From: Patescibacteria group bacterium
GTDB taxonomy: Bacteria; Patescibacteriota; Patescibacteriia; UBA1558; GWA2-36-10
Assembly: GCA_041650755.1 (NCBI GenBank)
Contig: JBAZKN010000002.1
Span: 69,030 to 133,029 of the forward strand
DNA length: 64,000 nt
Direction: 5' to 3'
The notes beneath the pieces were generated by a model. That model was given only the letters and a program-made list of their open reading frames with translations, had not been told where the DNA came from and did no database searches. The translations under genes and the position numbers were made by a program. Below are positions 3,456 through 47,400 of this stretch, in pieces (within the stretch, counting starts at the first letter, position 1; each line of letters begins with the position of its first letter).

Positions 3456-3904
3456 TAATATTGACAAATTTGACGTCATATTATATATATAAGGGTCAAA
3501 GTTCTTTTATATTTTTGGGCTATTCTCTTCAGGCAAGTGTCTTTAAAGGCATTTTTGAGGGTATTTTACCTGAAGAGAATATGCTTGGACAGTAAAGTGT
3601 CTTAGGATGAGTGTCGACCCATCCTAATATTCTCTAGTCAGGCCTTGCAAGTAACGATAATTATATGTTTCGTGCCTTGTATGCCTTTTTCCAGATGATC
3701 ATTCTGGTTGTGCTGTTCAAGTTATTCGCTCCAGGAGTCTATTCGCTCCTTGTCGAAATGTTGACTCAAGTTTTGACCATCGCCAATGCGGTGCTCAATC
3801 ACTTGGCCAACCAAACGCCCACTCTCTAGCCTCAAGCTCCAAAGAGCTTGATGCCAGAGGAAAACCAGAAAGGAGGATCGGTTCACGCCGGTCCTTTTCT
3901 TTTG

Positions 3905-3932
3905 AATAAAAAAAGACCCACCGAAGTGGGTC
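3905..3932 (-). terminator. Rho-independent terminator for the minus-strand small gene
   Basis: The minus strand reads GACCCAC-TTCG-GTGGGTC followed by a T-run; the hairpin overlaps the stop codon. Confidence 0.5.
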
Positions 3933-4242
3933 AGTCCTGCTGAGGGCAGTGCCGATGGGCGTAGTGTGCGTTGAGGTTGCATACCAGAGAGCTGGCTAAC
4001 ATGCAGCCGATCAATTTCTCGCACAGCCCTAGGCCGAGAGAGGTGTTGGCCATGTTAAAGCCATGAAACGCCAGGGCCCCGCCCATGATGATGAAGAACC
4101 ACGGCACAGGGGCAGCCAAGCCCAGAGCCAGGAAAAAGTAGGGGCAGCTAGCCCAGTTCGTCGGGGATTTGAGAAGCGCATCCCAACTCTTGTAGAAGAC
4201 GTAGAGCGAAGCGATGAAGGGAACCCAGATCAGGTTTTCCAT
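3931..4242 (-). CDS. Small hydrophobic protein (~104 aa) in GC-rich islet 1
   Basis: Local GC is ~55% against ~38% elsewhere. A strong SD (AAGGAGGGAGAGGG) sits 2 nt before the ATG. Two to three predicted TM segments, followed by a terminator. Confidence 0.45.
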   Translation of the reverse strand: MENLIWVPFIASLYVFYKSWDALLKSPTNWASCPYFFLALGLAAPVPWFFIIMGGALAFHGFNMANTSLGLGLCEKLIGCMLASSLVCNLNAHYAHRHCPQQD

Positions 4243-4365
4243 GGCCCTCTCCCTCCTTGAAGTCAGGGATGGCATCCAGCAAGCTCAAAGAGCGAGGTAG
4301 TCAATATAAATCATATCGCTTTATTGTTTTTTGTCAATAAATGATTTTATTGCTATGATAAGAAC

Positions 4366-15234: not shown

Positions 15235-15464
15235 TTGGCTTCACAAAAAGTGATAGTTTATCTATAATTAGTTTAATAGATTTTTGTTCGTTGTTGGTGG
15301 GTACACCCTTTTTCGTTGCACTATGGAGGGTAGGTAGCTTTGGTCAAAGATGGACAGGCAGTTGGTTCCTCGCCTTTAGTGGAATCGCCCTCTGGGCGAA
15401 GAGCATCACTCTTACTCACCTGCCTAAGCCGAACCACCGAAATTTAATTTTATATTTTTGTATG

Positions 15465-15541
15465 GGTATATAGCTCAGTTGGTTAGAGCACGACTCTTAT
15501 AAAGTCGGGGTCCCTGGTTCAAGTCCAGGTATACCCACCAT
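15465..15541 (+). tRNA. tRNA-Ile, anticodon UAU, with encoded CCA
   Basis: Manual cloverleaf fold: acceptor GGGTATA/TATACCC, D-arm GCTC-AGTTGGTTA-GAGC, anticodon stem CGACT/AGTCG, loop CTTATAA, T-arm CCTGG-TTCAAGT-CCAGG, discriminator A. Confidence 0.75.
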
Positions 15542-15720: not shown

Positions 15721-17355
15721 ATGTCTGTTCTAAAATTTATTTACCAAAATTTAGACAATTTTAAAACCAGATTTAATTTAGTTTTGTTATCGGGGCTGGC
15801 CAATGGCTTTGCTTCTTTTTTTATACCCGTAACTTTGGCCGAGTTTACTAAAAGTCAATTTACTACGGCCGGTTTTTATAGATTGATCTGGCTCATTGTT
15901 TTGCTTTATGCGGCAACTCTTTTTCTGCAATGGATTATCAGAAAATACGGCGAGTCGTTGGGTTTTCAATTTGCCAATCATATCAGATTAAAATATTTTG
16001 CCGATCTAGCTAAATTATCAGTCAGAGATTTGACCAATCATCATTCCGGCTATGTTTTGTCTCTGATAAATAGGGTGGCCGATGGTTTGACGCCGATCTT
16101 TTTTGACATGTTTTGGGCTTTGTCGGGTAGTTTGGCCAGTCTGATATTATTTTTTTATTTCACGGCCAAAGAATCTGGTTTGATGGCCCTCATCAATCTG
16201 GTTATTTTATCTATTTTTGTCGTAGTGAGCACTTGGTTATCTAGAAAGACCGTATACATAGCCGATGAACTGAATATTAAACGAGCTTCTATGCTGGGCG
16301 CATATGCTGATTTTATGGCCAATATTTTGACAGTCAAAAGACTGGGGGTTTATTCTTTTGCTGCGAAAAATCTCAGCGAAAAAACAGATGATAATTACGA
16401 GAAGATTCACCAGCTGCAAAGATTTCATGCTGGCCGTTGGTTTTGGCTGCACTTTTTGTATGGCTCGACTTATTTATCGACGATTGGCTTTATTTTGTGG
16501 CAAGTAGCTTTGGGACGCATTTCCGTGGCTGTATTGATTTTGTTCGTGGCTGCTTATACTAGTATTAGACATGGCATTGAGCGTTTATCAGAGAATCTAA
16601 AGACCTTTATGCAGATGAAAGCCTATATTGACAGCTTGGCGGATATCATCTCTCCTGCTAAGCATCAACGATCTGGTCGTCAGATAAAGAATTGGCAGAG
16701 TATCAATTTTAAAAGCGTATTTTTTCGCTATCCGGGCACAGAAAAACAAGTTAATATCCCAGAATTTCATTTCAGCAAAGGAGAAAAGGTTTGCATTATC
16801 GGTAAATCCGGCGAAGGCAAAACAACTTTTTTGAATCTGCTAGCTAATTTTTGGCAGCCAAACAAAGGGCATTGTTTTTTGGATGAAGTGGATTATAAGA
16901 AGGTTAGTCCGGATTTTTGGCAAGACAATGTCGCCATGATTTCCCAAGAGATTGAGTTGTTTAATATTTCTCTGCATGATAATATTTGTCTGGGCAAGAA
17001 TATCCCCATCTCTGAAATTTGGTCAATCTTGGAAAAGTTTGATTTATCTCATTGGGCCAAAACTTTGCCCGATGGCTTGGATACGATTGTTGGTGAAAAG
17101 GGGATTAAGTTGTCAGCCGGGCAAAAGCAGCGTATCAACCTCATCCGAGGAGTTTTGCTTGGCAGGGAGATATTACTATTGGATGAGCCGGGTTCGCATT
17201 TGGATGCGGCCACCGAAGCTAAAGTGATCAATTTTTTTGATCAACATCTGACAGATAAAACAGCTGTGATCGTTTCTCATAATCCAGCTTGGAAATCTAT
17301 TTGTGATCGGTGTTATACTATTAAAGATAATACTTTAGTTGACTCGCAGGTGTAG
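15721..17355 (+). CDS. ABC exporter with fused permease and ATPase
   Basis: Six N-terminal TM helices; Walker A GKSGEGKT, signature LSAGQKQR, Walker B LLLDEPGSHLD. The start is taken at M 15721, because the upstream part of the listed ORF is GC-rich non-coding sequence. Confidence 0.8.
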   Translation: MSVLKFIYQNLDNFKTRFNLVLLSGLANGFASFFIPVTLAEFTKSQFTTAGFYRLIWLIVLLYAATLFLQWIIRKYGESLGFQFANHIRLKYFADLAKLSVRDLTNHHSGYVLSLINRVADGLTPIFFDMFWALSGSLASLILFFYFTAKESGLMALINLVILSIFVVVSTWLSRKTVYIADELNIKRASMLGAYADFMANILTVKRLGVYSFAAKNLSEKTDDNYEKIHQLQRFHAGRWFWLHFLYGSTYLSTIGFILWQVALGRISVAVLILFVAAYTSIRHGIERLSENLKTFMQMKAYIDSLADIISPAKHQRSGRQIKNWQSINFKSVFFRYPGTEKQVNIPEFHFSKGEKVCIIGKSGEGKTTFLNLLANFWQPNKGHCFLDEVDYKKVSPDFWQDNVAMISQEIELFNISLHDNICLGKNIPISEIWSILEKFDLSHWAKTLPDGLDTIVGEKGIKLSAGQKQRINLIRGVLLGREILLLDEPGSHLDAATEAKVINFFDQHLTDKTAVIVSHNPAWKSICDRCYTIKDNTLVDSQV

Positions 17356-17421
17356 TTTAGTTGGTAGAACATTTCCTTCCCAAGGAAAAGGCCGCGGGTT
17401 CGAGTCCCGTCACCTGCTCCA
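17346..17421 (+). tRNA. tRNA-Gly, anticodon CCC, with encoded CCA
   Basis: Acceptor GCAGGTG/CACCTGC, anticodon loop TTCCCAA, T-arm CGGGTTCGAGTCCCG. Overlaps the ABC exporter stop codon by ~10 nt. Confidence 0.85.
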
Positions 17422-17446
17422 GCCCTCACCAATTATTTTTAATAAT

Positions 17447-18496
17447 ATGCCAGAAATTAATTTAGAAAAAATTTCATTACTAATTTCTCAAAAACTGAAA
17501 GAAAAAATTGAAATTGTTGATATAGAGAAAATTGGCAGCGGTTATCATTCAGATGGTTTCAAGCTAACCAGCAAAGAAAATAGAAACTTCTTTTTGAAAA
17601 GAGTGAAATCGCATGATTATGGATTTGAAATACCGGAACGCAAGTTGAATTCTTTATTAGTCAGTAATGGCATGTATCGCCGTTCTGGCATGTCGCCACG
17701 GGCTATTGGTGTGGTTATTAATAACCAAAATGAGGCGGTAATCATGCCCGAGCTTGATGAAAATAGTGAAATTTATCATATCCAGGAATATAAAACCAAT
17801 GGTGCCAGCTATTGGTCACAACTTGAAAGCAGAAAAGCGAAAAACAGATTGGATCAGCAAGACTTGGAGGACTTGGAAAAAATTACTGACTATATTTGTC
17901 GTTTGCACAAGGTTAAATATCCTTCACAGGACATAGAACAATTAAAAATTGTATATAACGATGGTCTGAGAAGCGTTATTACTAATCCAGAACTGACCAT
18001 AATGCTCTTACATGATTTTGATGATAGACATCCAATTTTGCCAGCCCGTGAGCATGGTAAATATGTTGGTTTGATGCTTAATCTAATGCATCTTTGGAAA
18101 GACAGATATGATCGTTTATCTGCTTTGCATGGTGATTTTTGGGGGGCAAATTTGTTTTTTGATCAAGATGGATCAATTTGGGTGATTGATTATTCGCGTA
18201 TTCCTTGGGGCGACCCCGGTTTGGACGTTGGTTGGTGGTTGGCCCAGTATTTATGGCTCTATCATGAAACCAATAATGAATATTTCAAAGAATCGGGAGA
18301 AAAATTTTTGGAGATTTATATAAGAAAAACCGGAGATAAAGAAATTCGTCAAGCGGTTAGCCTAGTTATGGGTTTGTGTGGCATTATTTATATTGCTCCC
18401 AAATTTTACCCTCAACTCAACCTCAAGCCAGCCAAAACGTATTATAAAAATATTTTGGCGATTTTAAAAAATAATCAGTTTATATGGAAAAAATAA
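17447..18496 (+). CDS. APH/choline-kinase-family phosphotransferase
   Basis: HGDFWGAN catalytic loop and IDYS metal-binding motif (PF01636-like). The start is taken at M 17447, downstream of the tRNA. Confidence 0.7.
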   Translation: MPEINLEKISLLISQKLKEKIEIVDIEKIGSGYHSDGFKLTSKENRNFFLKRVKSHDYGFEIPERKLNSLLVSNGMYRRSGMSPRAIGVVINNQNEAVIMPELDENSEIYHIQEYKTNGASYWSQLESRKAKNRLDQQDLEDLEKITDYICRLHKVKYPSQDIEQLKIVYNDGLRSVITNPELTIMLLHDFDDRHPILPAREHGKYVGLMLNLMHLWKDRYDRLSALHGDFWGANLFFDQDGSIWVIDYSRIPWGDPGLDVGWWLAQYLWLYHETNNEYFKESGEKFLEIYIRKTGDKEIRQAVSLVMGLCGIIYIAPKFYPQLNLKPAKTYYKNILAILKNNQFIWKK

Positions 18497-19293
18497 ATCA
18501 TCCAAAAATTGATATAGTGCGTCATGGGCAAGCCAAATATGGTCAAGAAAAAGTTTCCCTCGCTGAAGCTCAGGATCTGACTCCAGAAGGGGAGGAGCAG
18601 GTCAGGGCTAGTGCAGAAGCTCTAACGGAGCTTATTGGTCCTGATGAAGAGGTGGTGATTTGGTCATCGCCCATAGGACGAACTTTGCAGACAGCTAAAA
18701 TTATTGCCGAAACATTGGAGCAGAAAGGTATTCATTTGCGCGACAAGGCCAAATCAGACAGACCCGGTATTCAGACACATGAACAGCTGATAGAAGTAAA
18801 AGATTTTTCTTGGCAACTTTTTAAACCATTGATTGAAGGCGGTGATCTTACTTTTGCTGGACATAAATTTTTTATTGACAAAAAACTTAGCAACCCAAAC
18901 AATTTAGCTTACCCTGAATATTTTACTGAAGATTGTATTAGCAAGATTAGCCCAGAAGCCAAGACCCAATGGCCGGTTGAATACGTGCAAATAATTGACG
19001 GTATGGAAAAATTTATCGAAGTTACGAGGCGTATGATGGGTACATTAGATAGGCTAAAAAAGCTGCAAGATAAGCCTTACCGTATTATTATAGTGACTCA
19101 CGATGCTTTGATGGGTTTTATTGCTAATATTTTTTCCGCCGGAGAAAAAAGTGGTGTTGATAGTGGTGAGTTTATCAATCTGGAGATAAAAGATGATAAA
19201 TTGGTGGCCACCAGGGTTGGCACTATCACCGAAGGAGATTATAATACAGACATTATTGAAGAATTTAATCAGCGCCACGGCCAAAAAAATTAA
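18484..19293 (+). CDS. Histidine phosphatase (phosphoglycerate-mutase-like) family protein
   Basis: N-terminal RHG motif (VRHGQ), a later H in IIVTHDA, and a 13-nt overlap with the upstream kinase gene. Confidence 0.65.
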   Translation: MEKINHPKIDIVRHGQAKYGQEKVSLAEAQDLTPEGEEQVRASAEALTELIGPDEEVVIWSSPIGRTLQTAKIIAETLEQKGIHLRDKAKSDRPGIQTHEQLIEVKDFSWQLFKPLIEGGDLTFAGHKFFIDKKLSNPNNLAYPEYFTEDCISKISPEAKTQWPVEYVQIIDGMEKFIEVTRRMMGTLDRLKKLQDKPYRIIIVTHDALMGFIANIFSAGEKSGVDSGEFINLEIKDDKLVATRVGTITEGDYNTDIIEEFNQRHGQKN

Positions 19294-20424: not shown

Positions 20425-20685
20425 ATGACAAAATATTATTTTTATTTAGCCCGTTGTAATGACAATACTTTATACTCCGGCTATACTAATAATATAAAGA
20501 GGCGTGAGCATCGGCATAATCTTGGTGAAGGCGCAAAATATACCAGACGCAGATTGCCCATTAAAATAATTTATTGGGAAAAATATGATACGAGAATTGA
20601 AGCAATGCGCAGAGAGACTCAAGTCAAACGATGGAGCAAAATAAAAAAAGAAAATTTAATTAAATATAAAAAACCATTAAAATAA
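20425..20685 (+). CDS. GIY-YIG nuclease-family protein (UPF0213/YhbQ-like)
   Basis: 86 aa with YYFYLARCNDNTLYSGYTNN...R..EH and a GIY-YIG core. Confidence 0.7.
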   Translation: MTKYYFYLARCNDNTLYSGYTNNIKRREHRHNLGEGAKYTRRRLPIKIIYWEKYDTRIEAMRRETQVKRWSKIKKENLIKYKKPLK

Positions 20686-23477: not shown

Positions 23478-24446
23478 ATGTTAAGCAAGCAATACTTATC
23501 TTCAGATATTTTGGATAATATTTTACAGCCCTTTACGTTGGCAGAAATAACCAAAATTGAACCAGTGGCAACCAGCGGTAATATTGCCTATAAAATAGAG
23601 ACCAAAAATGGCGCTTATTTTTTTCGTCTTTGTCCAACTGGCCCACGCTGGCGAAGTAGTGAGGAGATCGCTGCTGAAATAGAATTATTAGATTATTTAT
23701 ATCAGCACAAATTACCGGTATTGCCAGCTCTGTCTGATAAAAATGGTCAGCGGATTATTTCTTGGCAAGGGCAATATGGCTATTTGCGGAAGTTTGTGGA
23801 TGCGCAAGAAAAATTAGATACCGGTATAGGAGAAATAGAAAAATTTGGGTCAATGATTGGCAGCTTACATGAGCTATTACAAAATTTTAAAACAATAAAC
23901 AAACGAGAACATATTTTTAATCCCGCACACACCAAAGAATATTTTTTTACCAATAAAAATAAGATTCTGCAGAGCGACTTTCCAGACTCAAAAAAATTTG
24001 TGGATAAATTTGAACAAGAAATTTGTTCACTAGAATTTCCCGATGATTTGCCAGCTGGTTTGATCCATGAAGACTTAGGCAGGCGTCATGTGCTTTGGTG
24101 CAATGACGAAATTACGGCAGTGATTGATTTTGACCGTTGTTATTTTGGCAAATTTATTTGGGATTTAGGTCAGGCAGCCAGAGGCTGGTGCTTTAGTCGC
24201 GATTGGCACTCATGGCAAGCAGAAAATTTTATCGCTTTACTCAAAGGTTATCAGACAAAAAGAGTTTTAACTGATTTGGAAAAAGAATATTTACCCATGG
24301 CAATTAGATTTGCTATTTTAGAAAGAGCCCTATCTTTTTGTTTACGTTTTATAGATGTGACTCAAGACGAGGAGGATGCTAGATTTGCCAAACAAAGTTT
24401 ATTTTCTCAACTAGAAATAATTAAACAAATAAAAACAGCCGCCTAG
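23478..24446 (+). CDS. APH/homoserine-kinase-II-family phosphotransferase
   Basis: LIHEDLGRRHVLW (HxDxxxxN-like) and IDFD motifs, in a ~320-aa protein. Confidence 0.6.
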   Translation: MLSKQYLSSDILDNILQPFTLAEITKIEPVATSGNIAYKIETKNGAYFFRLCPTGPRWRSSEEIAAEIELLDYLYQHKLPVLPALSDKNGQRIISWQGQYGYLRKFVDAQEKLDTGIGEIEKFGSMIGSLHELLQNFKTINKREHIFNPAHTKEYFFTNKNKILQSDFPDSKKFVDKFEQEICSLEFPDDLPAGLIHEDLGRRHVLWCNDEITAVIDFDRCYFGKFIWDLGQAARGWCFSRDWHSWQAENFIALLKGYQTKRVLTDLEKEYLPMAIRFAILERALSFCLRFIDVTQDEEDARFAKQSLFSQLEIIKQIKTAA

Positions 24447-24468
24447 TCCTCCCGAACTAGACGGTTGT

Positions 24469-25023
24469 TTAGCCGGACGGCCAGATGAACTTTGGGCCGT
24501 TTTTGCTCCACCGCGATTTCACGATGCAGACACTGACGCCTGACGCACGCAGGGCAATCATGTCCTCACATAGCCATTTTCGGCGCAAACGCATGTTGCG
24601 CCATAGTTGCTTGGCAATGCTCCGGAGGTTCCTCTTGTCGCGAGGCTTGCCCGAGCCCCGCCAACCCAGCTCTGCTTCCCAGCTGTGGTGTCCAGACCGA
24701 TACCAGTGTGGTATACGGTTGAGCCAGAACATGAGCTGAGAGAAGAAGGAGGGGTAGAGGTAGATGATGAAGTCATAGGACTTTAGGGGTAGGACGGCAT
24801 CTTTCAGCGTGGCGTGTACATCTTCAATGATATACGAGGTGTCGGTCCGGAATTCGGCGGGTAGCTCGGTGAGGATGTCGGCGTCGCGTTGGTCGCGCAG
24901 TTCGGGGAAGTGATCGGCGTCAAAATGTAACACCAGACAGCCCCTGCTCTTCAGACCCTGTACGATACTTCGGCGCAATGTGCTTTTGCCCGTGATCCCA
25001 ATGCCAGTGATTAGCATTTTCAT
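24469..25023 (-). CDS. P-loop NTPase, putative small-molecule or nucleoside kinase, in GC-rich islet 2
   Basis: Walker A GITGKST at residue 8. Strong SD GGAGGTGA 6 nt before the ATG. Local GC is ~55%. Confidence 0.5.
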   Translation of the reverse strand: MKMLITGIGITGKSTLRRSIVQGLKSRGCLVLHFDADHFPELRDQRDADILTELPAEFRTDTSYIIEDVHATLKDAVLPLKSYDFIIYLYPSFFSQLMFWLNRIPHWYRSGHHSWEAELGWRGSGKPRDKRNLRSIAKQLWRNMRLRRKWLCEDMIALRASGVSVCIVKSRWSKNGPKFIWPSG

Positions 25024-25203
25024 GATCTCACCTCCTTTATGGGTGATTTCGCGGTGGATTGTGGAATGTTCGGAAAATAATAATATAGCAAAAATAGACA
25101 CTTTTGTCAATAGTAGATAATTTCCAATAAAATGTCCTTGATATTATGGGCTGTTTATATTAAAGTATATAAGCATAAGATTAATTTAAATATTTAATTA
25201 AGC

Positions 25204-27549
25204 ATGTCGGAGCGATATAATTTTACAGATCGAGAAGAGCACTGGCGCAAGTTTTGGGAAAGCGAGGAGATTTTTAAATTTAATCCTCATACCAAAAAAC
25301 CAATTTATTCGGTTGATACACCGCCACCCTATGTTTCGGCTGACCACTTGCACCCCGGGCACATCATGAGCTATTCGCAGGCCGAATTTGTGGTACGTTA
25401 CAAAAGAATGGCTGGTTGTGAGGTTTATTATCCCATGGGATTTGATGATAATGGCCTGCCTACCGAAAGGTATGTGGAAAAAAAATATAATCTTGATAAA
25501 AATAAAATTTCCCGAGCGGATTTTATTGCCAAATGTCTGGCGGAAACTAAGATTGGTGTTCAGACTTACCGTAGCTTGTGGCGACTCCTGGGCATTTCAG
25601 TTGATTGGAGTAAGACCTATAGCACCATTGATGCTCATTGCCAGCGGATTTCCCAATGGTCATTTCTTGATTTGTATAAAAAGGGAAAATTAGAGCGTCG
25701 TGATGAGCCGACTAGTTGGTGTCCGGCTTGTCAGACGGCAGTGTCGCAAGCTGACCTTGAGGATAAAGAAGAAGACAGTAATTTAAATTATATTAATTTC
25801 TCAGGCTCCAGTGGCCAGGATTTATTGATTGCCACTACCAGGCCAGAGCTACTTCCGGCCTGTGTGGCTCTATTTGTCAATCCGCAAGACAAAAGATATC
25901 TTGGTTTAATTAGCCAAAAAGTCACGGTGCCAATTTTTGGCCAAACAGTCCCAATTTTGACCGATGAAAGCGTGGATATAAATTTTGGTACAGGCTTAAT
26001 GATGGTTTGCACCTGGGGAGATACCGAAGATGTGCGTAAATATCGGCTCAACAATTTGCCGTCCAGAGCAGTGATTAATCCAAATGGGACTTTGGGCGAA
26101 TTGGCCGGTGAGTTTTCTGGTCTGTCGATAAATAAAGCCCGAGCCGCTATTTTAGAAAAATTGCAAGCCAGTGGTAAGCTAGTCAAGCAAGAGAAAATAA
26201 AACATGTCCTTAATGTGCACGAGCGCTGCGGCACGCCGGTAGAGCTTATTCAGACTAAACAGTGGTTTATAAAAGTTCTGAATATAAAAGACCAACTGAT
26301 CAAGCAAGCCGATAAGATGAAGTGGTATCCGCAATATATGAAACAGCGTTATTTAGATTGGACTAAATCTTTGCAATGGGACTGGTGCATTTCGCGGCAG
26401 CGATATTATGGTGTGCCATTTCCAGTCTGGTATTGTGCGGATTGCGGCGAAGAGATTTTGCCGGCCGTTGAAGATTTGCCGGTTGACCCGACTGTCCAGG
26501 CACCAAAAATAAAGGCTTGCCCAAAGTGTAAGTCCACAACATTTGTGCCCGAAAAAGACGTGATGGATACTTGGATGACTTCGTCAATGACACCCAATAT
26601 TGGCGCAGAATTGTTTGAAGAAAAAGTTGCCAAAAAATTATATCCAGCCACTTTACGGCCGCAAGCTTATGATATTATCCGTACCTGGTTGTTTTATGCG
26701 GTAGTCAAGTCTTTTTATCATTTCCAGAGTATACCTTTCAGAGACATTATGATTTCCGGGCACGGCCAGGATTCAAAGGGCCAAAAGTTTTCCAAGCGCT
26801 TGGGTAATTTTGTTTCGCCGGATAAAGTGATAAGCCAATTTGGTGCTGATGCTATGCGCTACTGGACCACGGGAGCAAATTTGGGAGAAAATTTGCGCTA
26901 CAATGAAGATGAGATTAAGCGCGGTAGTCGGGCAGTGACCAAAATTTTTAATGTAGCCAAATTTTGTTTAGGGCACTTTGTCTTTAAAGATTATTCCAAA
27001 ATGCCCAGTAAACTGGAGCCGGAAGATGTTTGGATTTTATCTAACTTAAATCATACTATCCTAGCCGTAACCAAACATTTTGAGGAGTATCAATATGCCA
27101 AAGCGGTCAGCCAAATAGACGATTTTTTCTGGAATCAGCTGTGTGATAATTATATTGAATTTGTCAAACCGCGGCTTTATGCTGATACTTCGGACGAGAC
27201 CGCCAAGGCTGTTTTGTATCGGGTGCTTTTAAGCGTGATAAGGCTCTATGCTCCGATTCTACCTTTTATTACCGAGGAAGTCTATCAACAATATTTTGTA
27301 AAATTTGAAAAAGTAAAAAGTATACATTTGAGTAGCTGGCCAAAAAATTTGACTGATATAAAATTTGACAAAGATACATTAGCTTCATTTGGCCTAGCCG
27401 TAGAAGCAGTTGCGGAAATCAGGAAATATAAATCCGAGCAAAAAATTTCTTTAGGGAAAGAGATAGAGGATTATAAATTGCAAACCAAAGTTGATAAAAA
27501 ATATCTAAAGTTTATCGGGCAAGTTATCAAAGTAAAAAATCTGCAATAA
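25204..27549 (+). CDS. valS: Valyl-tRNA synthetase, compact form
   Basis: PPPYVS...HLHPGH (HIGH-type) motif, editing-domain TTRPE motif, and KFSKR (KMSKS-type) motif. At 781 aa it lacks the C-terminal coiled coil. Confidence 0.8.
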   Translation: MSERYNFTDREEHWRKFWESEEIFKFNPHTKKPIYSVDTPPPYVSADHLHPGHIMSYSQAEFVVRYKRMAGCEVYYPMGFDDNGLPTERYVEKKYNLDKNKISRADFIAKCLAETKIGVQTYRSLWRLLGISVDWSKTYSTIDAHCQRISQWSFLDLYKKGKLERRDEPTSWCPACQTAVSQADLEDKEEDSNLNYINFSGSSGQDLLIATTRPELLPACVALFVNPQDKRYLGLISQKVTVPIFGQTVPILTDESVDINFGTGLMMVCTWGDTEDVRKYRLNNLPSRAVINPNGTLGELAGEFSGLSINKARAAILEKLQASGKLVKQEKIKHVLNVHERCGTPVELIQTKQWFIKVLNIKDQLIKQADKMKWYPQYMKQRYLDWTKSLQWDWCISRQRYYGVPFPVWYCADCGEEILPAVEDLPVDPTVQAPKIKACPKCKSTTFVPEKDVMDTWMTSSMTPNIGAELFEEKVAKKLYPATLRPQAYDIIRTWLFYAVVKSFYHFQSIPFRDIMISGHGQDSKGQKFSKRLGNFVSPDKVISQFGADAMRYWTTGANLGENLRYNEDEIKRGSRAVTKIFNVAKFCLGHFVFKDYSKMPSKLEPEDVWILSNLNHTILAVTKHFEEYQYAKAVSQIDDFFWNQLCDNYIEFVKPRLYADTSDETAKAVLYRVLLSVIRLYAPILPFITEEVYQQYFVKFEKVKSIHLSSWPKNLTDIKFDKDTLASFGLAVEAVAEIRKYKSEQKISLGKEIEDYKLQTKVDKKYLKFIGQVIKVKNLQ

Positions 27550-27630: not shown

Positions 27631-27718
27631 GCCGAAGTGGCGAAACTTGGTAGACGCGCATGGTTCAGGGCCATGTGATCGCAAGGTCGTGAGGGTTCAA
27701 ATCCCTCCTTCGGCACCA
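27631..27718 (+). tRNA. tRNA-Leu, anticodon CAG, with long variable arm and encoded CCA
   Basis: Acceptor GCCGAAG/CTTCGGC, anticodon loop TTCAGGG, long variable arm, T-arm GAGGGTTCAAATCCCTC. Confidence 0.85.
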
Positions 27719-27835
27719 AATATTATATGAGCACTAGTAAACTAGTGTTTTTTGTTGCTTGACTTATCGGATTAATTGGCCTATATTATTAGGCGGTTTA
27801 GATGTTCCTTGGTTTTCTGCCGAAGGGAGTGAGCT

Positions 27836-28213
27836 ATGAAGAAGCTTAGCAAAGTTATGCTGGTTGCTCGTGGTGCCGAGGCTTTGAAGAGCTTACAGGG
27901 CATGTGGGGTCGCGCTCAGGTAGATCAGCTGGCTGAGCTAATCCCAGCTATGAGTTTCCGTTCGGTGCGGGCAACTCAGCGGCTGGTGCGGAAGAATCAG
28001 CCGTCAGTGGTGGTCATTGGTCATGGCTTTGCTGATCAGCCGTTCTTCGGCGACGAGCTTATTCAAGCCATCAGGGCTGCTTGCCCCAGCTGTCTCGTCA
28101 TCTGCATCAACGGCGGTTTATTTTTGACTGCTGTTCACAGCCAGGTCGACTTTCGTATTAAGGGTAGTCCAGAAAATCTGCGGACAACCCTTTTGGCTAT
28201 CCGTGCTCGGTAG
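27836..28213 (+). CDS. Hypothetical protein in GC-rich islet 3, possibly a degenerate receiver-like fold
   Basis: SD AAGGGAG before the ATG, ~58% GC, and a terminator directly downstream. Confidence 0.4.
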   Translation: MKKLSKVMLVARGAEALKSLQGMWGRAQVDQLAELIPAMSFRSVRATQRLVRKNQPSVVVIGHGFADQPFFGDELIQAIRAACPSCLVICINGGLFLTAVHSQVDFRIKGSPENLRTTLLAIRAR

Positions 28214-28229
28214 ATCAAGATCTAGGGTG

Positions 28230-28284
28230 GGTGCTGGCGTCAGCACCTTTTTATATAAAAAAATGCCGTCCAGGATGGACGGCA
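28230..28284. terminator. Pair of back-to-back rho-independent terminators between convergent islet genes
   Basis: On the + strand, GGTGCTG-gcgt-CAGCACC followed by TTTTT. On the minus strand, TGCCGTCC-tcct-GGACGGCA followed by TTTTTTT. Confidence 0.55.
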
Positions 28285-28298
28285 CGCAGAAGGAGTTT

Positions 28299-28811
28299 TC
28301 AAGCCTCCAGGCGCCTGGCAGAGGCGGGGTTTTGCCATCTTCTCCGCGGCACGCGGAGAGGTACGATAGGCGCCAGGCGGGGCGGTTTGCTTCGGGTCGC
28401 CCGCGAAGTAGGCATGAAACGCGCATGTGAGGGGAAAGATGCAATGATGCGACTACGAGCAGCAGATGGCCTGTCGTTAGCAACTGCCGTAACCTTAGCA
28501 ACTACTGCTTCGGGGATTTCCTCAATATCCATGTACATATCAGCCAAGTCGCCAAAAAGGCCGCGACGTAGGCCATAAAACATCAGCGCCTCATAGCCCA
28601 TGCCAACAATAGCTTCTTGGTCGAGGTCGAGCTTGACCAGATCGTCTGGGCTCAAGACTGCCCAATTGCCCCTGTGTCGAGGCATAGGATTCGGGATAGA
28701 CAGAAAGAGATATTCGCCGGGCGGCAAAGTGAAGCTAGCTTCTTGGTAGGGATCAGTGCTCAATACGTGGTATAGCACCCGAGGGAATTCTGTGACCACG
28801 CGTAGTGGCAT
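28299..28811 (-). CDS. Hypothetical protein in GC-rich islet 3
   Basis: Start chosen at MPLRV because of the strong SD GAAGGAGAGGG 2 nt upstream. The C-terminal third is R/P/S/A-rich low-complexity sequence. Confidence 0.35.
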   Translation of the reverse strand: MPLRVVTEFPRVLYHVLSTDPYQEASFTLPPGEYLFLSIPNPMPRHRGNWAVLSPDDLVKLDLDQEAIVGMGYEALMFYGLRRGLFGDLADMYMDIEEIPEAVVAKVTAVANDRPSAARSRIIASFPSHARFMPTSRATRSKPPRLAPIVPLRVPRRRWQNPASARRLEA

Positions 28812-28907
28812 GACCCTCTCCTTCGAGATGTTGAGGTACAGAAATCGGCTGCCACCGTTTTGCGTGAAGATAGTGGCAACCTCCATTTAAATTATAGAAT
28901 ATGCAAG

Positions 28908-28936
28908 TTGACTTTACAAGCTAAATAAAATATTCT
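28908..28936 (+). promoter_or_regulatory. Candidate sigma70-type promoter for tRNA-Ser
   Basis: TTGACT, 17 nt, TATTCT, ending ~20 nt upstream of the tRNA. Confidence 0.3.
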
Positions 28937-28956: not shown

Positions 28957-29047
28957 GGTGGGATGGCCGAGTGGTTGAAGGCGCCGCACTCGAAATGCGG
29001 TATACTCAAAAAGGGTATCGGGGGTTCGAATCCCTCTCCCACCGCCA
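28957..29047 (+). tRNA. tRNA-Ser, anticodon CGA, with long variable arm and encoded CCA
   Basis: Anticodon loop CTCGAAA, long variable arm TATACTCAAAAAGGGTATC, T-arm GGGGGTTCGAATCCCTC. Confidence 0.85.
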
Positions 29048-41420: not shown

Positions 41421-44400
41421 ATGAGAGCTTATCAAAAAATATTATTAGGCGTCTTAGTGGCGGTGGTCGCTGCTACTATGATTTTTAGCATCCCAAAACC
41501 TCAGTCAGCTCAAGCTTTGGGTCCATCTTTGCCAAACTTTGTCGAGATAGCTACTTGGGTTTGGACACGTGCTAAATACGCATATCATAAAGTGGAAAGC
41601 GCTTTGACTAGCCAGCTCTTGGTACGCACTGTTGAAACTTATGTTAATAATCTGGCCTATAATATGGCGACCAGTATTGCCACTAATGGTGCAGGCGGTA
41701 AGCCATTATTTGAGACCAAAAGTGTAAAAAATGCCCTAAAACAGGCCCAAGAGGCAGCCGCCGGAGAGTTTATCGGCCAATTGAGCGCTAGCAGCTTTAG
41801 CCAATTGGGCTTTAACCTTTGCGAACCATCTTTGAACGTCAGATTATCTATTACCTTAGGCTTAATAGATTCTACTGCACCGCCAACGCCAAAGTGTAAT
41901 TGGCAAGATGTAAAATCCAAATGGGAGAGATTCGGTAATTTGACTATTTCTGATATGGTCAAATTTCAACTGGATACTGCTCCTAGTAAATATACTAGTC
42001 TTACTCCACTGGAGGGCAGCAGCAGCCGCATAAATGTATGGCAGAATTATGATGATTTTTTCAAGAGTTTTTCCTTGGAACAAAGTGATTGGGGTGTTTT
42101 TGGTAAATTGAATGAGGCTTATGAAAAAGCTCAACAAGATGCTGTGGCTGCCAAAGACACCTATCTTAAAATCTGCAATGGCTATCTAAATAATGAGACT
42201 ACTGTTAGTGAAGATGTCAAAACCACCTGTAAAGCAATAGTGGATTCACAAGGCGCGGCTTTGGCAACTTTGGCAGTGTCTGATATAGAAAAGATAAAAT
42301 TACCATCTCAGGTCAGCTCGCCCAACCCGAATTTGAGTCAGGTCATGAAGAATGCCGGCAAGTATTTTATCAGTACTCTAGCTTCCAAGTCACAGCCTAT
42401 TTTCTTGAAGCTGGTAAATAAATGGCTAAAAGAAGGCATGGCCTCTTTTGTGTCTTTATTTAAAAGTAATCAATCTTTGCGCGATGATCTTTTGGCTCAA
42501 TTGCGGGGAGGGGCAGATCTCTATCAGCCGCGCGGTGTAGATTTTTATTCTGAATTTAAAAAGATAGAATTTGACACCGTGGAGTCCTATGGTTTACTGG
42601 ATGATTTTGCCGTTTGTCCAGAAGATACGCAGTATCGTAAACCGGACAATTGTGTCATCTCGGCTGATTTTTTACAGGCTGTCAACAGCAAAGTCACCGT
42701 GCAGGAAGCGATCGATAGTGGCTATATCAATGGCGGCTTGCCTTTGGTAGGGCGCGACGATGCTTTGCGTGATAGTAATAGCCAGTGTTATCGGGATGGC
42801 TTGTGTTATAGTAATTTAGTCAAATTACGCAAAGCTAATATTATACCGGTAGGTTGGGAAATGGCCGCTCTCAAGAGCCCCAGTACCAAGCCAGCGACTT
42901 TGCAGCAGGCCATTGATTGTTTTGAAGATGACGCTAGTAAATGTAGCGTGCCGGCTACTGGCCATAATCCATATTATCATTTGATTGACCCTAATTGGAT
43001 TTTGAAAGCGCCAGCTGCTATTTGCAGCGCCTATGTCTACGCCCCAGTTTTGGAAGCACCAGATTCAAGCAATCGGCAGCAATATTGTGCCGACACCAAA
43101 GTATGTTTGCGCGAAGATGATAAAGGTAATTGTCTAGATGGCCAATATGGCTATTGTACCAAGAGTGAAAACATTTGGCGTTTTCAGGGTGATATTTGCC
43201 AAGATGGAGATATCTATAGCGGTTGTTTGACTTTTTCTGGCGCCAGCCGGCCGATACAATCATATTTAGAACAATCCTTAAGTTATTGTACGGCCGATCA
43301 GGTAGGCTGCCAGCGCTATTCCCAAGAGAAGAATGATGATGGCGAGTGGGTATTCCAAAGTATCGGTGCTGATGACAATGATTTATTTTTAAATAAACAG
43401 GCTCAAACTTGTTCAGCAGCTGAAAATGGTTGTTCGGAATTTATTATAATGGCGGCAGACAGTGGAGCAAATTTATTTGCCAACGGTGATTTTGAGATGG
43501 ATAGCGACAGCGACTTGTTGCCAGATGGATATGCAGTTTTTGACGTTGCTTCTGTGCCATTATTTGCGCCATATTTAGTATCTGGTCAAGGGGTGGATAA
43601 TTCCAACGCCGCGTTATCTAGAATCGGAGCGGGTAATGCTTGCCGCCGCATAGATGTTTTCCCCAATACTTTATATAATTTTTCCGCCTCCTTTAAGCAA
43701 TCAAGCATAGTTTCTCAAGCAGAAATATTATTACAATCTTGCACTAGCGCGAATAGTCAGCCTGGTAATATCAGCTCACCCGATGGGTCTTTTACAGTAT
43801 TTAATGATGGGGGCAGTACTTTCCCACCAAATAAAGGTTATGTCAGGTTGGAATCCACTGAGTATAATAATACTGGTTATACCCGTGTTGCCGGTACTAT
43901 CAATTCCGGTGATTCAGTTTCTTGTTGGGTATGCGCCGGCGGCGTAAATGAATATCAGTATGTGGATAATTTAAAAGTAGAAATAGTCAGTCAGCCGAAA
44001 GCAGAAGCGAATTATTCTGCTTATGGTGCCGGTGCCAAGATAGTTTTAAATGGCTCTCGCAGCATGTGCACTGCCCAAGAAGTTGGTTGTCAAGGATATA
44101 CTCCTAGTAATGGTGATCCAATGATTCCGGCTGTCATCAATCAGACAGATCTATGTCCGTCACAATGCGTCGGCTATGCTAGTTTTGCTCAGCAGACAGA
44201 TATTTTTGATGCCGTCGATCCTTTGAGCAGCAATGAAGTAGAATATTATAATTTTATTCCTAAAGATAAAAACACCAAGACTTGCCCAGCCCAAGCAGTT
44301 GGCTGCGAGGAGTTCACTAATCTTGATGAAGTAGCTAAGGGAGGAGAGGGCAAAGAATATTATACTTATCTCCGTCAATGCGTGGCGGAAGATCTGGGGC

Positions 44401-47400
44401 ATACTTATTATACTTGGGAGGGTTCTGATGTAGCCGGCTATCAGATTAAGACTTGGCTGGCTTTGTCTAGCAATAGCGGTGGCCCCTGTACCAATGTCGC
44501 CCCAGCTGGTGATGTCTGTCTGGATGACTCTAGCCCGAGTACAGCAGCAGCGATTTGTACAGCTACTGAAGCGGCTACTGACCCAAATTGTCGGCAGTTC
44601 TTTGATTCGGACGGGACATCCTATTATCGTTATCAAAATAGAATAATTTTTGCTAGCGGCGATTGTCACGATTATCGCCGCACGGCCACAGGCAGCACCT
44701 TTAGAGCCATTCCTTCATTGAGCACGCAGTGTGAGGCCCAGTACAAGGATTGTCGCTCTTATTATGGCAATACAGCCAATAATGTTTACCAGATTCTTAG
44801 CGATAACTTTGAACAGAATGTCTACTCACCTTGGCAAGCATATCTAGCCACGATTGACTTGTCTCCAGAGTCTTTGGAAAATAATGGCCATTCTTTGAAG
44901 ATAGTCAAGAGCGGTAATTGGGCAGACATATATCGCCCCTTAGGCATAGCTCCGGAAAATAATAAACAATATCAGGTCTCTTGGTGGATGAAAAATGATG
45001 CGCCGCTAAATTATGTCAGGGTGCGCCTAGTGCCATCATATAATGGCGGCGGTTATGTCAGATTTAGAGTCAAGGACTCATCTGTTATTACTGATGGATT
45101 TTTGGTGAATATTTTAAATGATAGTACTTTAAGCAATGTCAGTGCGGCTACTTGGCATCGGTTTGAAGCCAGCAATACGCTTGATTTCAATGATATCGTC
45201 TTAGATGCTGGCCGTACCCTAGCTGATATTAATTGGAATAATACGCTTTTGGTCATTGATGCTTCTAACTCTACTAGTAACGATCAATTATTTTTTGATA
45301 ATATAATTTTTAAAGAAGTCAATAGCAGCATTTCTGTTATTAAGAATTCTTGGCAAACACCAATAGCTTGCGACACTCCTTATACTGGTTATTACTTGGG
45401 TTGTCAGACCTACACCGATACCAATAATAATCAATACAATTTACACTCCTTTTCTAGCCTGTGTCGCGTAGAAGCTATTGGTTGTATGCCGGCTATTGAT
45501 ACACATAATTCCAGTAATCCATTTGCCGAGACTTTCAATGCTGGCGATAACTCTGAAATCACAGTACCGGCTGATAATACAACTTATTTGGTGCCGGATA
45601 ATACTAAATATTGCGCTAGCCAATATAAAGGTTGTATGGCCTTGGGTGTGCCAGACCTTACGCAGCCCAGCTATTTGACAACGGTATATAAGATAAATAA
45701 TCCTGATTATTATGGTACGACTTTGTGCCCCAGCACGGCCTTGGGTTGTGATGAATATATTTCCAGTAAGGGCACATATTATTTCCGTGATCCAGGCACA
45801 GAAACTTGTACCTACAAGAAAAATATATCAGTCGATGGCAGTATCGTGTCCGGCTGGTTTAAGACCAGCACCATAAATACCAACTCGCCGATAGCCTGCA
45901 ATGATTACAATAATGACGGATCAATAAATTTGAGCGATTCAGTATTGTATATGCAAGGGGAGCGTCAGGGCGCCCAGGTCTGTTCAATTGATAAAAATTT
46001 ATGCACGGCCTTCGTTGACCCATCGGATCCGCAGAGTTGCACTTTTGGTTATTGTGCCAATCTTTCTGGCACGCCAGAGTCTGGGTATGCCAGCCAGTAT
46101 GCCTGTGAATCCAATCCATCAATGAGATGGGTGCCGGGCACTTGCCAGACTTATTACTATTATAATAATGATAACATTGATAAGGATTCTTGTGCCGGCG
46201 AGGTAGATAAAAATAGTGGCTGCGCTTTGTTTTATGAGGCAAATGATTGGAACGCCGATCACAGTGCCGTCAATGTGACTTATGACTCTACTAAGACTTA
46301 TGATAGCAATGTGTCTACTGGTAAGCCGGTTAGTCCGGTAATTTGCAATAGTAGCCAGGATCCAACCTGCGAATTAGATGCTAATATTCTTCTGAAGGTA
46401 AAGAAAGATCGCCAGTGCGGGGAATGGCTGGCTTGTCGCTCTTCATCAGTGGTTTGGGATAGTGATAATAATAAATATAAAGTAGTTTGCGCTGACTTGA
46501 GTTTATGCAATGAGTTTGATCCGGATAATAATATCACTAAATGCGGCAATTGGGTTGATCCGGGGAACTTGCCGCTGACTGAGGACCTATATCAGAGCCG
46601 CACTACGGGAGCCAATAATCATTTGCAATGGGGCGACATGGACTATACTGGTTTTTCAATACCAGATTTCATGCCGGTTGCTGCTCTGACAGTGGTCAAT
46701 TTTGGCACAGCGGCTAGTCCAAATCCTCGCTTGGTTTACGCTGTCAGCAGCCCGACTTGTCTGCCAAATGGCCGCTCTTGTGATGTGGTTTTGGATGGCA
46801 CGACGTATACCGGCGTTTGTCAGGATCGCCAATGCACCATCAACCCAGATTTATCAAATAATAATTTATTGGTTGATACCCGCGGCTTCACTAGCGCCGA
46901 TGCTCCTTTTCCCATCAGTATTGCTCCTGACCAAAATCAGCTCGATAGGCTGGCAGCTTATGCGGGAGCCAACATGTGCCAATCGATCAATAGTTCTGGC
47001 GTTTCGACGCCAAACGGCTGTGAACTTTCTTATGTAAAATTAACTTATGGCAGTAGCGGTGAAGTGCGCTATTATCCAAAGAATTCACCCACGCCGAATG
47101 GTATCTGCACTTCTGGCGATTTAGATAGCAAGATCGATTGTGTAGATAGCAGTGGTGCGGTCAGAAATAATTTGTGCGACACCTATAATGATGATGGTAC
47201 TTCTCGGGCTGATGGTATGTGCTCCAAAAAAACAAAAGCTGAGACAGTCTATAATTGGCCGGGCATTTGTTTGGAAAAAGATTATAACGCTAAGTTAGTC
47301 AATGATACTGGCGGCAATTTTTATTGCAATCAATGGTATCCAGCCGAACAAATCAACGGCATGAATAGTCTGTATGACAATTATCGTGAGGCCGGGTATT

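Follow-up and report, generated by a model that had tools for sequence, protein, structure and literature searches.

Three GC-rich islets of Shine-Dalgarno-led genes in an AT-rich Patescibacteria contig: composition, expression signals and probable origin

We analyzed a 64-kb stretch of DNA from an AT-rich Patescibacterium (contig JBAZKN010000002.1, positions 69,030 to 133,029 of the forward strand; hereafter the window), which contains three short GC-rich islets with small genes, most of them preceded by strong Shine-Dalgarno (SD) sequences. The window has a GC content of 41.4%, and its genes include comM, rny, HU, infB, metS, valS, rpsF-ssb-rpsR, efp and many small hypothetical genes. The original prediction, made from the sequence alone, had interpreted the islets as recently acquired from a higher-GC donor by phage, an integrative element or a miniature cassette family; this reading was partly supported by the present analysis. 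The islets comprise five small open reading frames (ORFs), here called small54, memb103, the P-loop gene, rec125 and RP170. Their features are listed below, where GC3 is the GC content at third codon positions, z is the deviation of GC3 from the background ORFs of the window, and duplex energies refer to pairing with the anti-SD sequence.

Islet 1
3665-3829 (+): small54, hydrophobic ORF of 54 amino acids (aa), GC3 0.64, no SD, convergent with memb103
3871-3898 (+): terminator-like hairpin and T-run after small54
3915-3932 (-): memb103 terminator, GACCCACTTCGGTGGGTC followed by T7
3931-4242 (-): memb103, hydrophobic ORFan of 103 aa, GC 0.56, GC3 0.76, z = 7.1
4243-4258 (-): memb103 SD region, AAGGAGGGAGAGGGCC directly 5' of the ATG, duplex energy -11.9 kcal/mol
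4310-4337 (-): memb103 promoter-like site, TTGACA-N16-TATGAT, 11 of 12 matches

Islet 2 and its neighbor
23478-24446 (+): APH-family kinase gene, homoserine-kinase-II-like, native AT-rich composition (GC 0.36), no SD, convergent with the P-loop gene
24439-24464 (scored on the - strand): hairpin terminator between the APH and P-loop genes
24469-25023 (-): P-loop kinase-like gene, 184 aa, GC 0.55, GC3 0.70, z = 5.9
25024-25038 (-): P-loop SD, AAAGGAGGTGAGATC, duplex energy -15.9 kcal/mol
25082-25110 (-): P-loop promoter-like site, TTGACA-N17-TATATT with TG extension, 11 of 12 matches, conserved in the sister contig L049

Islet 3 and its borders
27631-27718 (+): tRNA-Leu(CAG), left border
27759-27787 (+): rec125 promoter-like site, TTGACT-N17-TATATT, alignable with the promoter of the homologue on contig L095
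27836-28213 (+): rec125, 125 aa, GC 0.54, GC3 0.57, z = 3.3, SD GAAGGGAG
28229-28248 (+): rec125 terminator
28263-28285 (-): RP170 terminator
28299-28811 (-): RP170, ORFan of 170 aa with an Arg/Pro-rich C-terminal tail, GC 0.56, GC3 0.56
28812-28824 (-): RP170 SD, GAAGGAGAGGGTC upstream of the ATG, duplex energy -9.6 kcal/mol
28891-28919 (-): RP170 promoter-like site, TTGTAA-N17-TATAAT
28957-29047 (+): tRNA-Ser(CGA), right border

A crude gene call of the window provided 50 background ORFs with a mean GC3 of 0.406 (standard deviation 0.050, range 0.26-0.50). Against this background of 0.41 ± 0.05, the five islet ORFs had GC3 values of 0.56-0.76, with z-scores of 3.3-7.1 for memb103, the P-loop gene, rec125 and RP170; the z-score of RP170 (3.5) was computed on the GC3 of 0.58 of a 195-aa ORF starting at an upstream ATG, not on the 170-aa coding sequence. 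A GC profile in 50-bp steps placed abrupt islet borders at approximately 3700-4300, 24450-25000 and 27800-28850, confirming the three predicted GC-rich islets. The GC-rich segments consist of the coding sequence, part of the leader and the terminator, while the promoters lie in AT-rich DNA. Within the islet ORFs, the codon positions follow the order GC3 ≥ GC1 > GC2, as in true coding sequence. As the GC excess is strongest at third codon positions, the islets look like the coding sequence of a GC-richer genome and not like structured RNA. These data support the view that the islet genes are compositionally foreign, with a GC3 excess typical of coding sequence from a genome of at least 55% GC.

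The start signals divide the genes in the same way. At the first start codons of native genes, the anti-SD duplex energies were almost all between about +2 and -4 kcal/mol, including those of valS, rpsF, ssb and rpsR, whereas memb103, the P-loop gene, rec125 and RP170 reached -8.5 to -15.9 kcal/mol. In a motif scan of the entire window, the only real gene starts with a properly spaced AGGAG, GGAGG or GAGGT in front of them were those at 4242, 25023 and 28811; all remaining matches were gene-internal, and no native gene start carried the canonical motif. The contrast with a "weak-SD genome" is therefore real but was understated in the original prediction. Its description of one or two small genes per islet with canonical SD sequences applies to memb103, the P-loop gene and RP170, and the two start contexts that it quoted are present exactly as written. 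The SD of rec125, however, is the weaker GAAGGGAG, unlike the canonical ones, and small54, which had not been listed, has none. The islet genes thus have translation signals that are not in use among the native genes of the host, a conclusion supported by both the energies and the motif scan, and composition and translation signals together point to a GC-richer donor, as originally proposed. In published data, an anti-SD motif was found for only 48% of the Parcubacteria (PMC9297842); the 16S rRNA gene of the present organism lies outside the window.

Each of the four SD-led genes is preceded by one of the best promoter-like sites of its region. Each also has a leader of 50-70 nt and a terminator made of a hairpin and a T-run, in agreement with the predicted GC-rich hairpin terminators. 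The islet genes on the minus strand are convergent with a neighboring gene. In minimum-energy folds of all four leaders (4222-4306(-), 25003-25082(-), 27793-27856(+) and 28791-28898(-)), the SD is paired with an upstream CCUC, UCACC or UUCCUU stretch. The leader folds were no better than those of shuffled sequences, except for a separate strong hairpin in the RP170 leader (z = -2.4). In the P-loop mRNA, the leader (TCCACCGCGAAATCAC) and the 3' end of the gene's own coding sequence form a 16-nt inverted repeat (24507-24522 and 25043-25058, 88% complementary), whose CCACCGC/GCGGTGG core also occurs in L049. With a chance expectation of about 0.1 by hand estimate, the repeat may reflect pairing between the 5' and 3' parts of the mRNA or may be coincidental.

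The product of the P-loop gene carries the Walker A motif GIGITGKST and the Walker B-like strand YIIEDVH. It has 38 homologues, none with a Pfam domain. Across 37 of them, G9, K13, S14 and E67-D68 are invariant, which corresponds to a Walker A consensus GxxxxGK[ST] and an acidic Walker B strand. All Pfam and NCBIfam matches of the protein remained below the family cut-offs. Its AlphaFold model has a mean predicted local distance difference test score (pLDDT) of 94.7, and Foldseek matched the model remotely to archaeal adenylate kinases, PanK and PRK, with template modeling (TM) scores of 0.45-0.53. A PDB profile match to PSTK (E = 1.5e-3) was restricted to the N-terminus and reflects a weak PSTK/APS-kinase likeness. 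The label "P-loop kinase-like" that had been predicted for the product of 24469-25023 is thus a fair one. The protein resembles archaeal adenylate kinase, PanK, PRK, PSTK and APS kinase in the GxxxxGKS/T motif and the acidic IIEDVH strand; it differs from them in its subthreshold family scores, a unique Trp-rich C-terminal half and an obligate APH-family neighbor.

This neighbor gives islet 2 its most informative context. The P-loop gene lies tail-to-tail with an APH-family kinase gene not only in the window but also in the contigs L042, L044 (and its siblings), L048, L050, L096 and L049, that is, in every contig long enough to show the neighbor. The neighborhood of the pair differs in each contig. 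The proposal that islet 2 is an insertion does not agree with this arrangement, in which convergent pairing with the APH kinase gene is conserved in six Patescibacteria-like contigs besides the window. Sequence identities to the window run in parallel, with 52, 47, 47, 45 and 41% for the P-loop protein and 54, 54, 50, 48 and 47% for APH. All inter-locus identities of both proteins lie between 41 and 56%, with a star-like pattern and a weak correlation (r = 0.47), and such identities cannot separate vertical inheritance from replacement.

The GC3 of the P-loop gene varies widely among these contigs. It is 0.37 in L042, L044 and L050, which is ordinary for these contigs, 0.48 in L048, 0.55 in L096 (a contig of 50% GC), 0.70 in the window and 0.79 in L049. 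The value of 0.37 indicates that a high GC content is not a property of the family. At all seven loci, however, the GC content of the P-loop gene equals or exceeds that of APH. L096 shows the inverse mosaic: the APH gene (1378-2334) is an AT-rich outlier of GC 0.39, and values of 0.51-0.61 were obtained for the P-loop gene, a 184-aa ORF and an ABC transporter. A GC mosaic at the level of single genes thus recurs around the P-loop/APH pair. The amino-acid composition is shifted as well. The Gly, Ala, Arg and Pro (GARP) fraction of the window's P-loop protein is 0.26 and its R/(R+K) ratio 0.60, while most homologues are rich in Phe, Tyr, Met, Ile, Asn and Lys (FYMINK) and in Lys. Arg was preferred over Lys (R/(R+K) of 0.60-0.86) in three of four proteins with homologue data, whereas the P-loop homologues are mostly of the AT type (0.22-0.55). 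The shift in the P-loop protein argues for a long residence under GC pressure.

The AGGAGGT core is kept upstream of the P-loop gene in L049, L048, L096 and L044, and the APH gene lacks an SD in all contigs. Between the window and L049, the P-loop leaders are only about 60% identical and contain indels, yet the SD core is preserved, which suggests that the SD is read. SD use is therefore partly a trait of the P-loop family and not only a relic of a donor, and a maintained SD-dependent gene class therefore stays alive as a rival explanation (see below). Two neighborhoods may bear on the role of the pair. In L050 (640-6605), P-loop/APH adjoins genes for a His_Phos_1 phosphatase, CobU, CobS, CobD and a periplasmic binding protein, and the window contains a second APH and His_Phos_1 pair at 17339-19293. 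The genes next to the pair in L050 belong to the pathway for cobamide salvage and for the assembly of the cobamide nucleotide loop. The two arrangements are a possible functional hint for the kinase module.

The timing of islet 2 was derived from L049, a 1.6-kb contig from a different run and a different species, which was the only close relative recovered. Its gene order, valS/P-loop/APH, is that of the window. The protein identities to the window are 83-84% for the N-terminus of ValS, 76-77% for the C-terminus of APH and 80-81% for the P-loop protein, and a 90-bp alignment block that includes the APH/P-loop terminator is 88% identical. As in the window, a GC-rich P-loop gene (GC3 0.79) lies between AT-richer flanks. 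A species whose ValS has diverged this far thus carries the GC-rich gene at the corresponding position, which is at odds with a recent acquisition of islet 2. At fourfold degenerate sites, the P-loop genes of the two species differ at 26 of 67 positions and the adjacent valS genes at 45 of 69 (Fisher's exact test, p = 0.003), while the amino-acid identities of both proteins are equal (81-83%). The lower synonymous divergence may mean that the allele is younger than its flanks owing to a later exchange, or that its synonymous sites are constrained; two sequences cannot tell these apart. Where fourfold sites differ, the P-loop copy of the window is the more AT-rich one by 2:1, and the same ratio was found for valS, as expected from amelioration in the more AT-rich of two genomes. 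ValS-anchored scans of genomes of the Genome Taxonomy Database (GTDB) and of JGI metagenomes yielded no syntenic relatives for islets 2 and 3, the best full-length ValS being at most 65% identical and without synteny; the closest GTDB species-level genomes have ValS proteins of 64-65% identity and no synteny. One candidate relative, L092, was rejected, as its ValS is 80% identical over only 104 residues and tsaD lies upstream of valS.

Islets 1 and 3 consist of lineage-restricted genes, namely two ORFans and one tiny family, with small54 standing outside the homologue searches. Neither memb103 nor RP170 had any homologue but itself among 5.8 billion proteins. For islet 1, a single small membrane protein had been predicted; memb103 is indeed hydrophobic, but the islet contains two convergent small hydrophobic ORFs instead of one gene. 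A GATAAT hexamer lies 6 nt before the ATG of small54, which may be leaderless. Upstream of the islet, the AT-rich spacer after comM contains two long imperfect hairpins at 3521-3581 and 3593-3636, with arms of 16 and 20 nt.

An exhaustive search of 1.84 billion representatives gave five matches for rec125. The AlphaFold model of rec125 (pLDDT 86) predicts a CheY-like (beta-alpha)5 or flavodoxin-like fold; it matches the CheY-like protein TadZ, Spo0F and the B12-binding domains of methylmalonyl-CoA mutase at TM 0.64-0.78, and CheY-like and REC domains at TM 0.63-0.70. The designation "receiver-like" therefore holds for the fold alone. Unlike CheY-like receivers and B12-binding flavodoxin-like domains, rec125 lacks the phospho-acceptor Asp at the end of beta3, the acidic pair after beta1 (the positions being occupied by VVVIGHG and LVARG) and the DxHxxG motif, and Pfam Response_reg does not score. 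Only distant homologues keep a DD after beta1. A homologue of 47% identity lies on L095, a 617-nt contig from a sister sample; it has a GC content of 0.57 and a GC3 of 0.72, and its flanks have 33% and 40% GC. This copy can be aligned with that of the window in promoter and leader, and it adjoins a tRNA-like 5' end in the opposite orientation. The alignment indicates that the whole rec125 unit of promoter, leader, gene and terminator is homologous, the sole respect in which "cassette" is an apt term. A more distant homologue is found on a contig of 52% GC with the genes NDK, Nramp and TrmB, which resemble those of the candidate phyla radiation.

Searches for a vehicle of transfer were negative. 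No integrase, transposase or phage gene was found in or near the islets, and a repeat search detected neither a duplicated tRNA 3' end nor an att site. No border repeats were found within or between the three islets, whose only shared element is the TATTGACAAAA -35 box. Features of integron-type cassettes, such as attC-like border repeats and promoterless ORFs, are absent, as each of the genes is preceded by a promoter of its own. None of the five islet ORFs had a match above cut-off in Pfam, NCBIfam, PHROGs or PADLOC. PHROGs returned one marginal partial match (E = 6.7e-4, function unknown) and no further family, and PADLOC-DB only a marginal partial match for rec125, with no assignment to a defense system. 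The APH protein, searched with Pfam and PADLOC only, matches Pfam APH and has no PADLOC match. No relatives were detected in IMG/VR by single-protein scans or with the P-loop alignment, in INPHARED by tblastn with RP170 and memb103, in PLSDB, or in BFVD by a fold search with the P-loop model. Thus, none of the three proposed vehicles, that is, phage, an integrative element with integrase and duplicated tRNA end, or a family of miniature cassettes with common borders, found support in these data.

Taken together, we consider the islets to be autonomous accessory transcription units that were acquired or replaced, not very recently, from GC-richer and SD-using donors, probably other Patescibacteria, and assign a probability of roughly 60% to this reading. 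The coding sequences would earlier have resided in an SD-using genome of clearly higher GC content (about 55% or more). The present host is an AT-rich Patescibacterium, and the translation of its native genes starts on AT-rich leaders that lack SD sequences. Each GC-rich gene is presumably expressed alone in this host, from a near-consensus sigma70-type promoter in the AT-rich flank through a 50-70 nt leader and a strong SD to an intrinsic terminator. Because the P-loop gene occurs tail-to-tail with APH across Patescibacteria, the event at islet 2 would be an in-place (xenologous or allelic) replacement of the resident gene by a GC-rich allele, and not the gain of a new function. We infer that it took place at or before the split from the sister species, so that the common ancestor received the allele and both descendants kept it. 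The lower fourfold-site divergence would fit a P-loop allele that arrived or was exchanged after the flanks had diverged. All homologues with an examinable surrounding contig lie on Patescibacteria-like contigs, and 83% of the gene transfers detected into Patescibacteria came from other Patescibacteria (PMC12455944); a source within the phylum is in line with this reported predominance of within-phylum, non-recent transfers. Several observations weigh against an origin by transfer. The searches gave no donor sequence: outside the genus, even the best P-loop homologues are only about 52-53% identical and mostly of the AT type, and the ORFans memb103 and RP170 can be traced to no source. Mobility genes, att duplications and border repeats common to the islets were not found. 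The weak correlation of the P-loop and APH identities leaves room for vertical inheritance of the P-loop gene together with APH, an SD also precedes P-loop homologues that are not GC-rich (L044 and L048), and constraint on synonymous sites would explain the lower divergence at these sites equally well.

Among the other explanations, an artefact of assembly or binning, in which GC-rich fragments of another organism were chimerically joined into the contig, would account for the abrupt GC borders in what is a metagenome-assembled genome (MAG). Contamination of this kind had been named as an alternative in the original prediction. Islets 2 and 3 and their flanks are, however, 100% identical in a 236-kb ENA MEGAHIT contig and in Logan contigs of 33 kb and 5.3 kb, which excludes chimerism for these two islets. 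The junctions of islet 2 recur in the separate sister-species contig, and the promoters in the AT-rich flanks stand at the right positions to serve the GC-rich genes. For islet 1, the 191,846-nt contig of NCBI and JGI was the only source found. Overall, an artefact is hardly credible. GC islands in AT-rich genomes typically are structured non-coding RNAs, and if this applied here, the ORFs would be spurious. The two ORFans and the RP170 leader hairpin, which folds better than shuffled sequences, would fit such RNAs. We nevertheless regard this as extremely improbable in view of the codon-position periodicity of GC, the homologues and confident models of the P-loop and rec125 proteins, the correct register of SD, ATG and terminator in all four genes, and the Rfam result, which at the gathering score comprised nothing but tRNAs. 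The E-value mode of Rfam added weak matches far below the gathering score, which among the three islets were confined to islet 1. We also think it unlikely that a phage, an integrative element or a family of miniature mobile cassettes left the islets behind as remnants, with moron-like units moving as blocks of promoter, gene and terminator. This architecture and the deviant GC content speak for such an origin, as do the position of islet 3 between tRNA-Leu and tRNA-Ser, the tRNA-like 5' end next to the homologous rec125 unit of L095 and the new neighborhood of the P-loop/APH pair in every contig. The missing mobility genes and repeats and the lack of significant matches in the phage, virus and plasmid libraries argue against it, and islet 2 fills a conserved gene slot and not an insertion site.

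The remaining explanations dispense with transfer. A GC-rich, SD-led state could be maintained in a minority of genes, with GC-rich or structured mRNAs needing an SD and selection holding their GC content while the genome drifts toward AT. The conservation of AGGAGGT before P-loop homologues in distant contigs, and never before APH, would agree with this possibility, and so would the GC content of the P-loop gene relative to APH at all seven loci, its low fourfold-site divergence, the GC-rich state of both rec125 copies inside AT-rich flanks and the predicted pairing of the SD with an upstream anti-SD-like stretch in four of four leaders. The ordinary P-loop GC3 in L042, L044 and L050 shows, however, that high GC is not intrinsic to the family, the shift to Arg, Ala, Gly and Pro indicates long GC mutation pressure instead of selection on the mRNA, and all leader folds but the one RP170 hairpin are no better than shuffles. 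Moreover, we know of no mechanism that holds a GC3 of 0.7-0.8 in single genes of a bacterium with 41% GC. We therefore doubt this explanation. Somewhat more doubtful is a small, conserved SD-dependent gene class, exemplified by the P-loop partner of APH, in a lineage otherwise without SD initiation; its GC-rich coding sequences and SD-pairing leaders would be kept by selection, for example for conditional translation, and would not be relics of transfer. If such a class existed, the islets would show that a minimal genome can have a second mode of initiation, one that is regulated.

Acquisition from GC-richer donors can be compared with known systems. Like the "alien" genes of Lawrence and Ochman, the islet genes are small, self-expressed units with GC and GC3 values far from the host mean, deviant translation signals and an ORFan or patchy distribution, and one islet is flanked by tRNA genes. 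Unlike them, they lack mobility genes, att repeats and a named donor, and islet 2, which fills the conserved slot next to APH and is common to the sister species, is neither an insertion nor recent. Phage morons are reportedly autonomous promoter-gene-terminator units of deviant GC content in prophages (Hendrix/Juhala 2000). The islet units share with them the sigma70 promoter, the single gene, the terminator of its own and a composition unlike that of the neighbors; they lie, however, outside any prophage, with no phage gene within reach and no phage homologues by sequence or fold. According to Gios et al. (2025; PMC12455944), transfers into Patescibacteria stem mostly from Patescibacteria and are not recent, with a mean divergence of 23.7%. 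The Patescibacteria-like contigs of the islet homologues and the sister-species copy, which is about 20% diverged, are similar in this respect, whereas that study describes neither an SD dichotomy nor single-gene GC-rich islets, and no donor-recipient pair can be named here.

The islets would thus represent a fairly ordinary kind of event with odd details, namely the SD dichotomy, the low synonymous divergence of the P-loop gene and the uncharacterized P-loop/APH module. If they were indeed transferred, they provide a clean small-scale case in which genes moved between Patescibacteria that differ in base composition, including an in-place replacement within a kinase pair, and they indicate that foreign genes can retain their own initiation signals in a host that starts translation without SD sequences. 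Whether such a host still reads SD sequences, and how fast amelioration proceeds in ultra-small genomes, become testable questions. The conserved P-loop/APH pair is an uncharacterized two-kinase module of Patescibacteria that may matter for salvage metabolism.

Four further features of the window were noted. ValS (25204-27549) has many relatives of 44-51% identity among DPANN and other archaeal MAGs of the GTDB and is 40% identical to that of Methanocaldococcus, which suggests a ValS of the archaeal type. A tRNA-Ile with the anticodon UAU is encoded at 15464-15540; this tRNA is uncommon in bacteria, in which AUA is usually read by a lysidine-modified CAU tRNA. Directly upstream of metS, an 86-aa GIY-YIG ORF (20425-20685) is an AT-rich outlier (GC 0.31, GC3 0.26) and may be the remnant of a homing-endonuclease-like gene. 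Finally, a single ORF of 2767 aa with native composition extends from 41421 to 49724.

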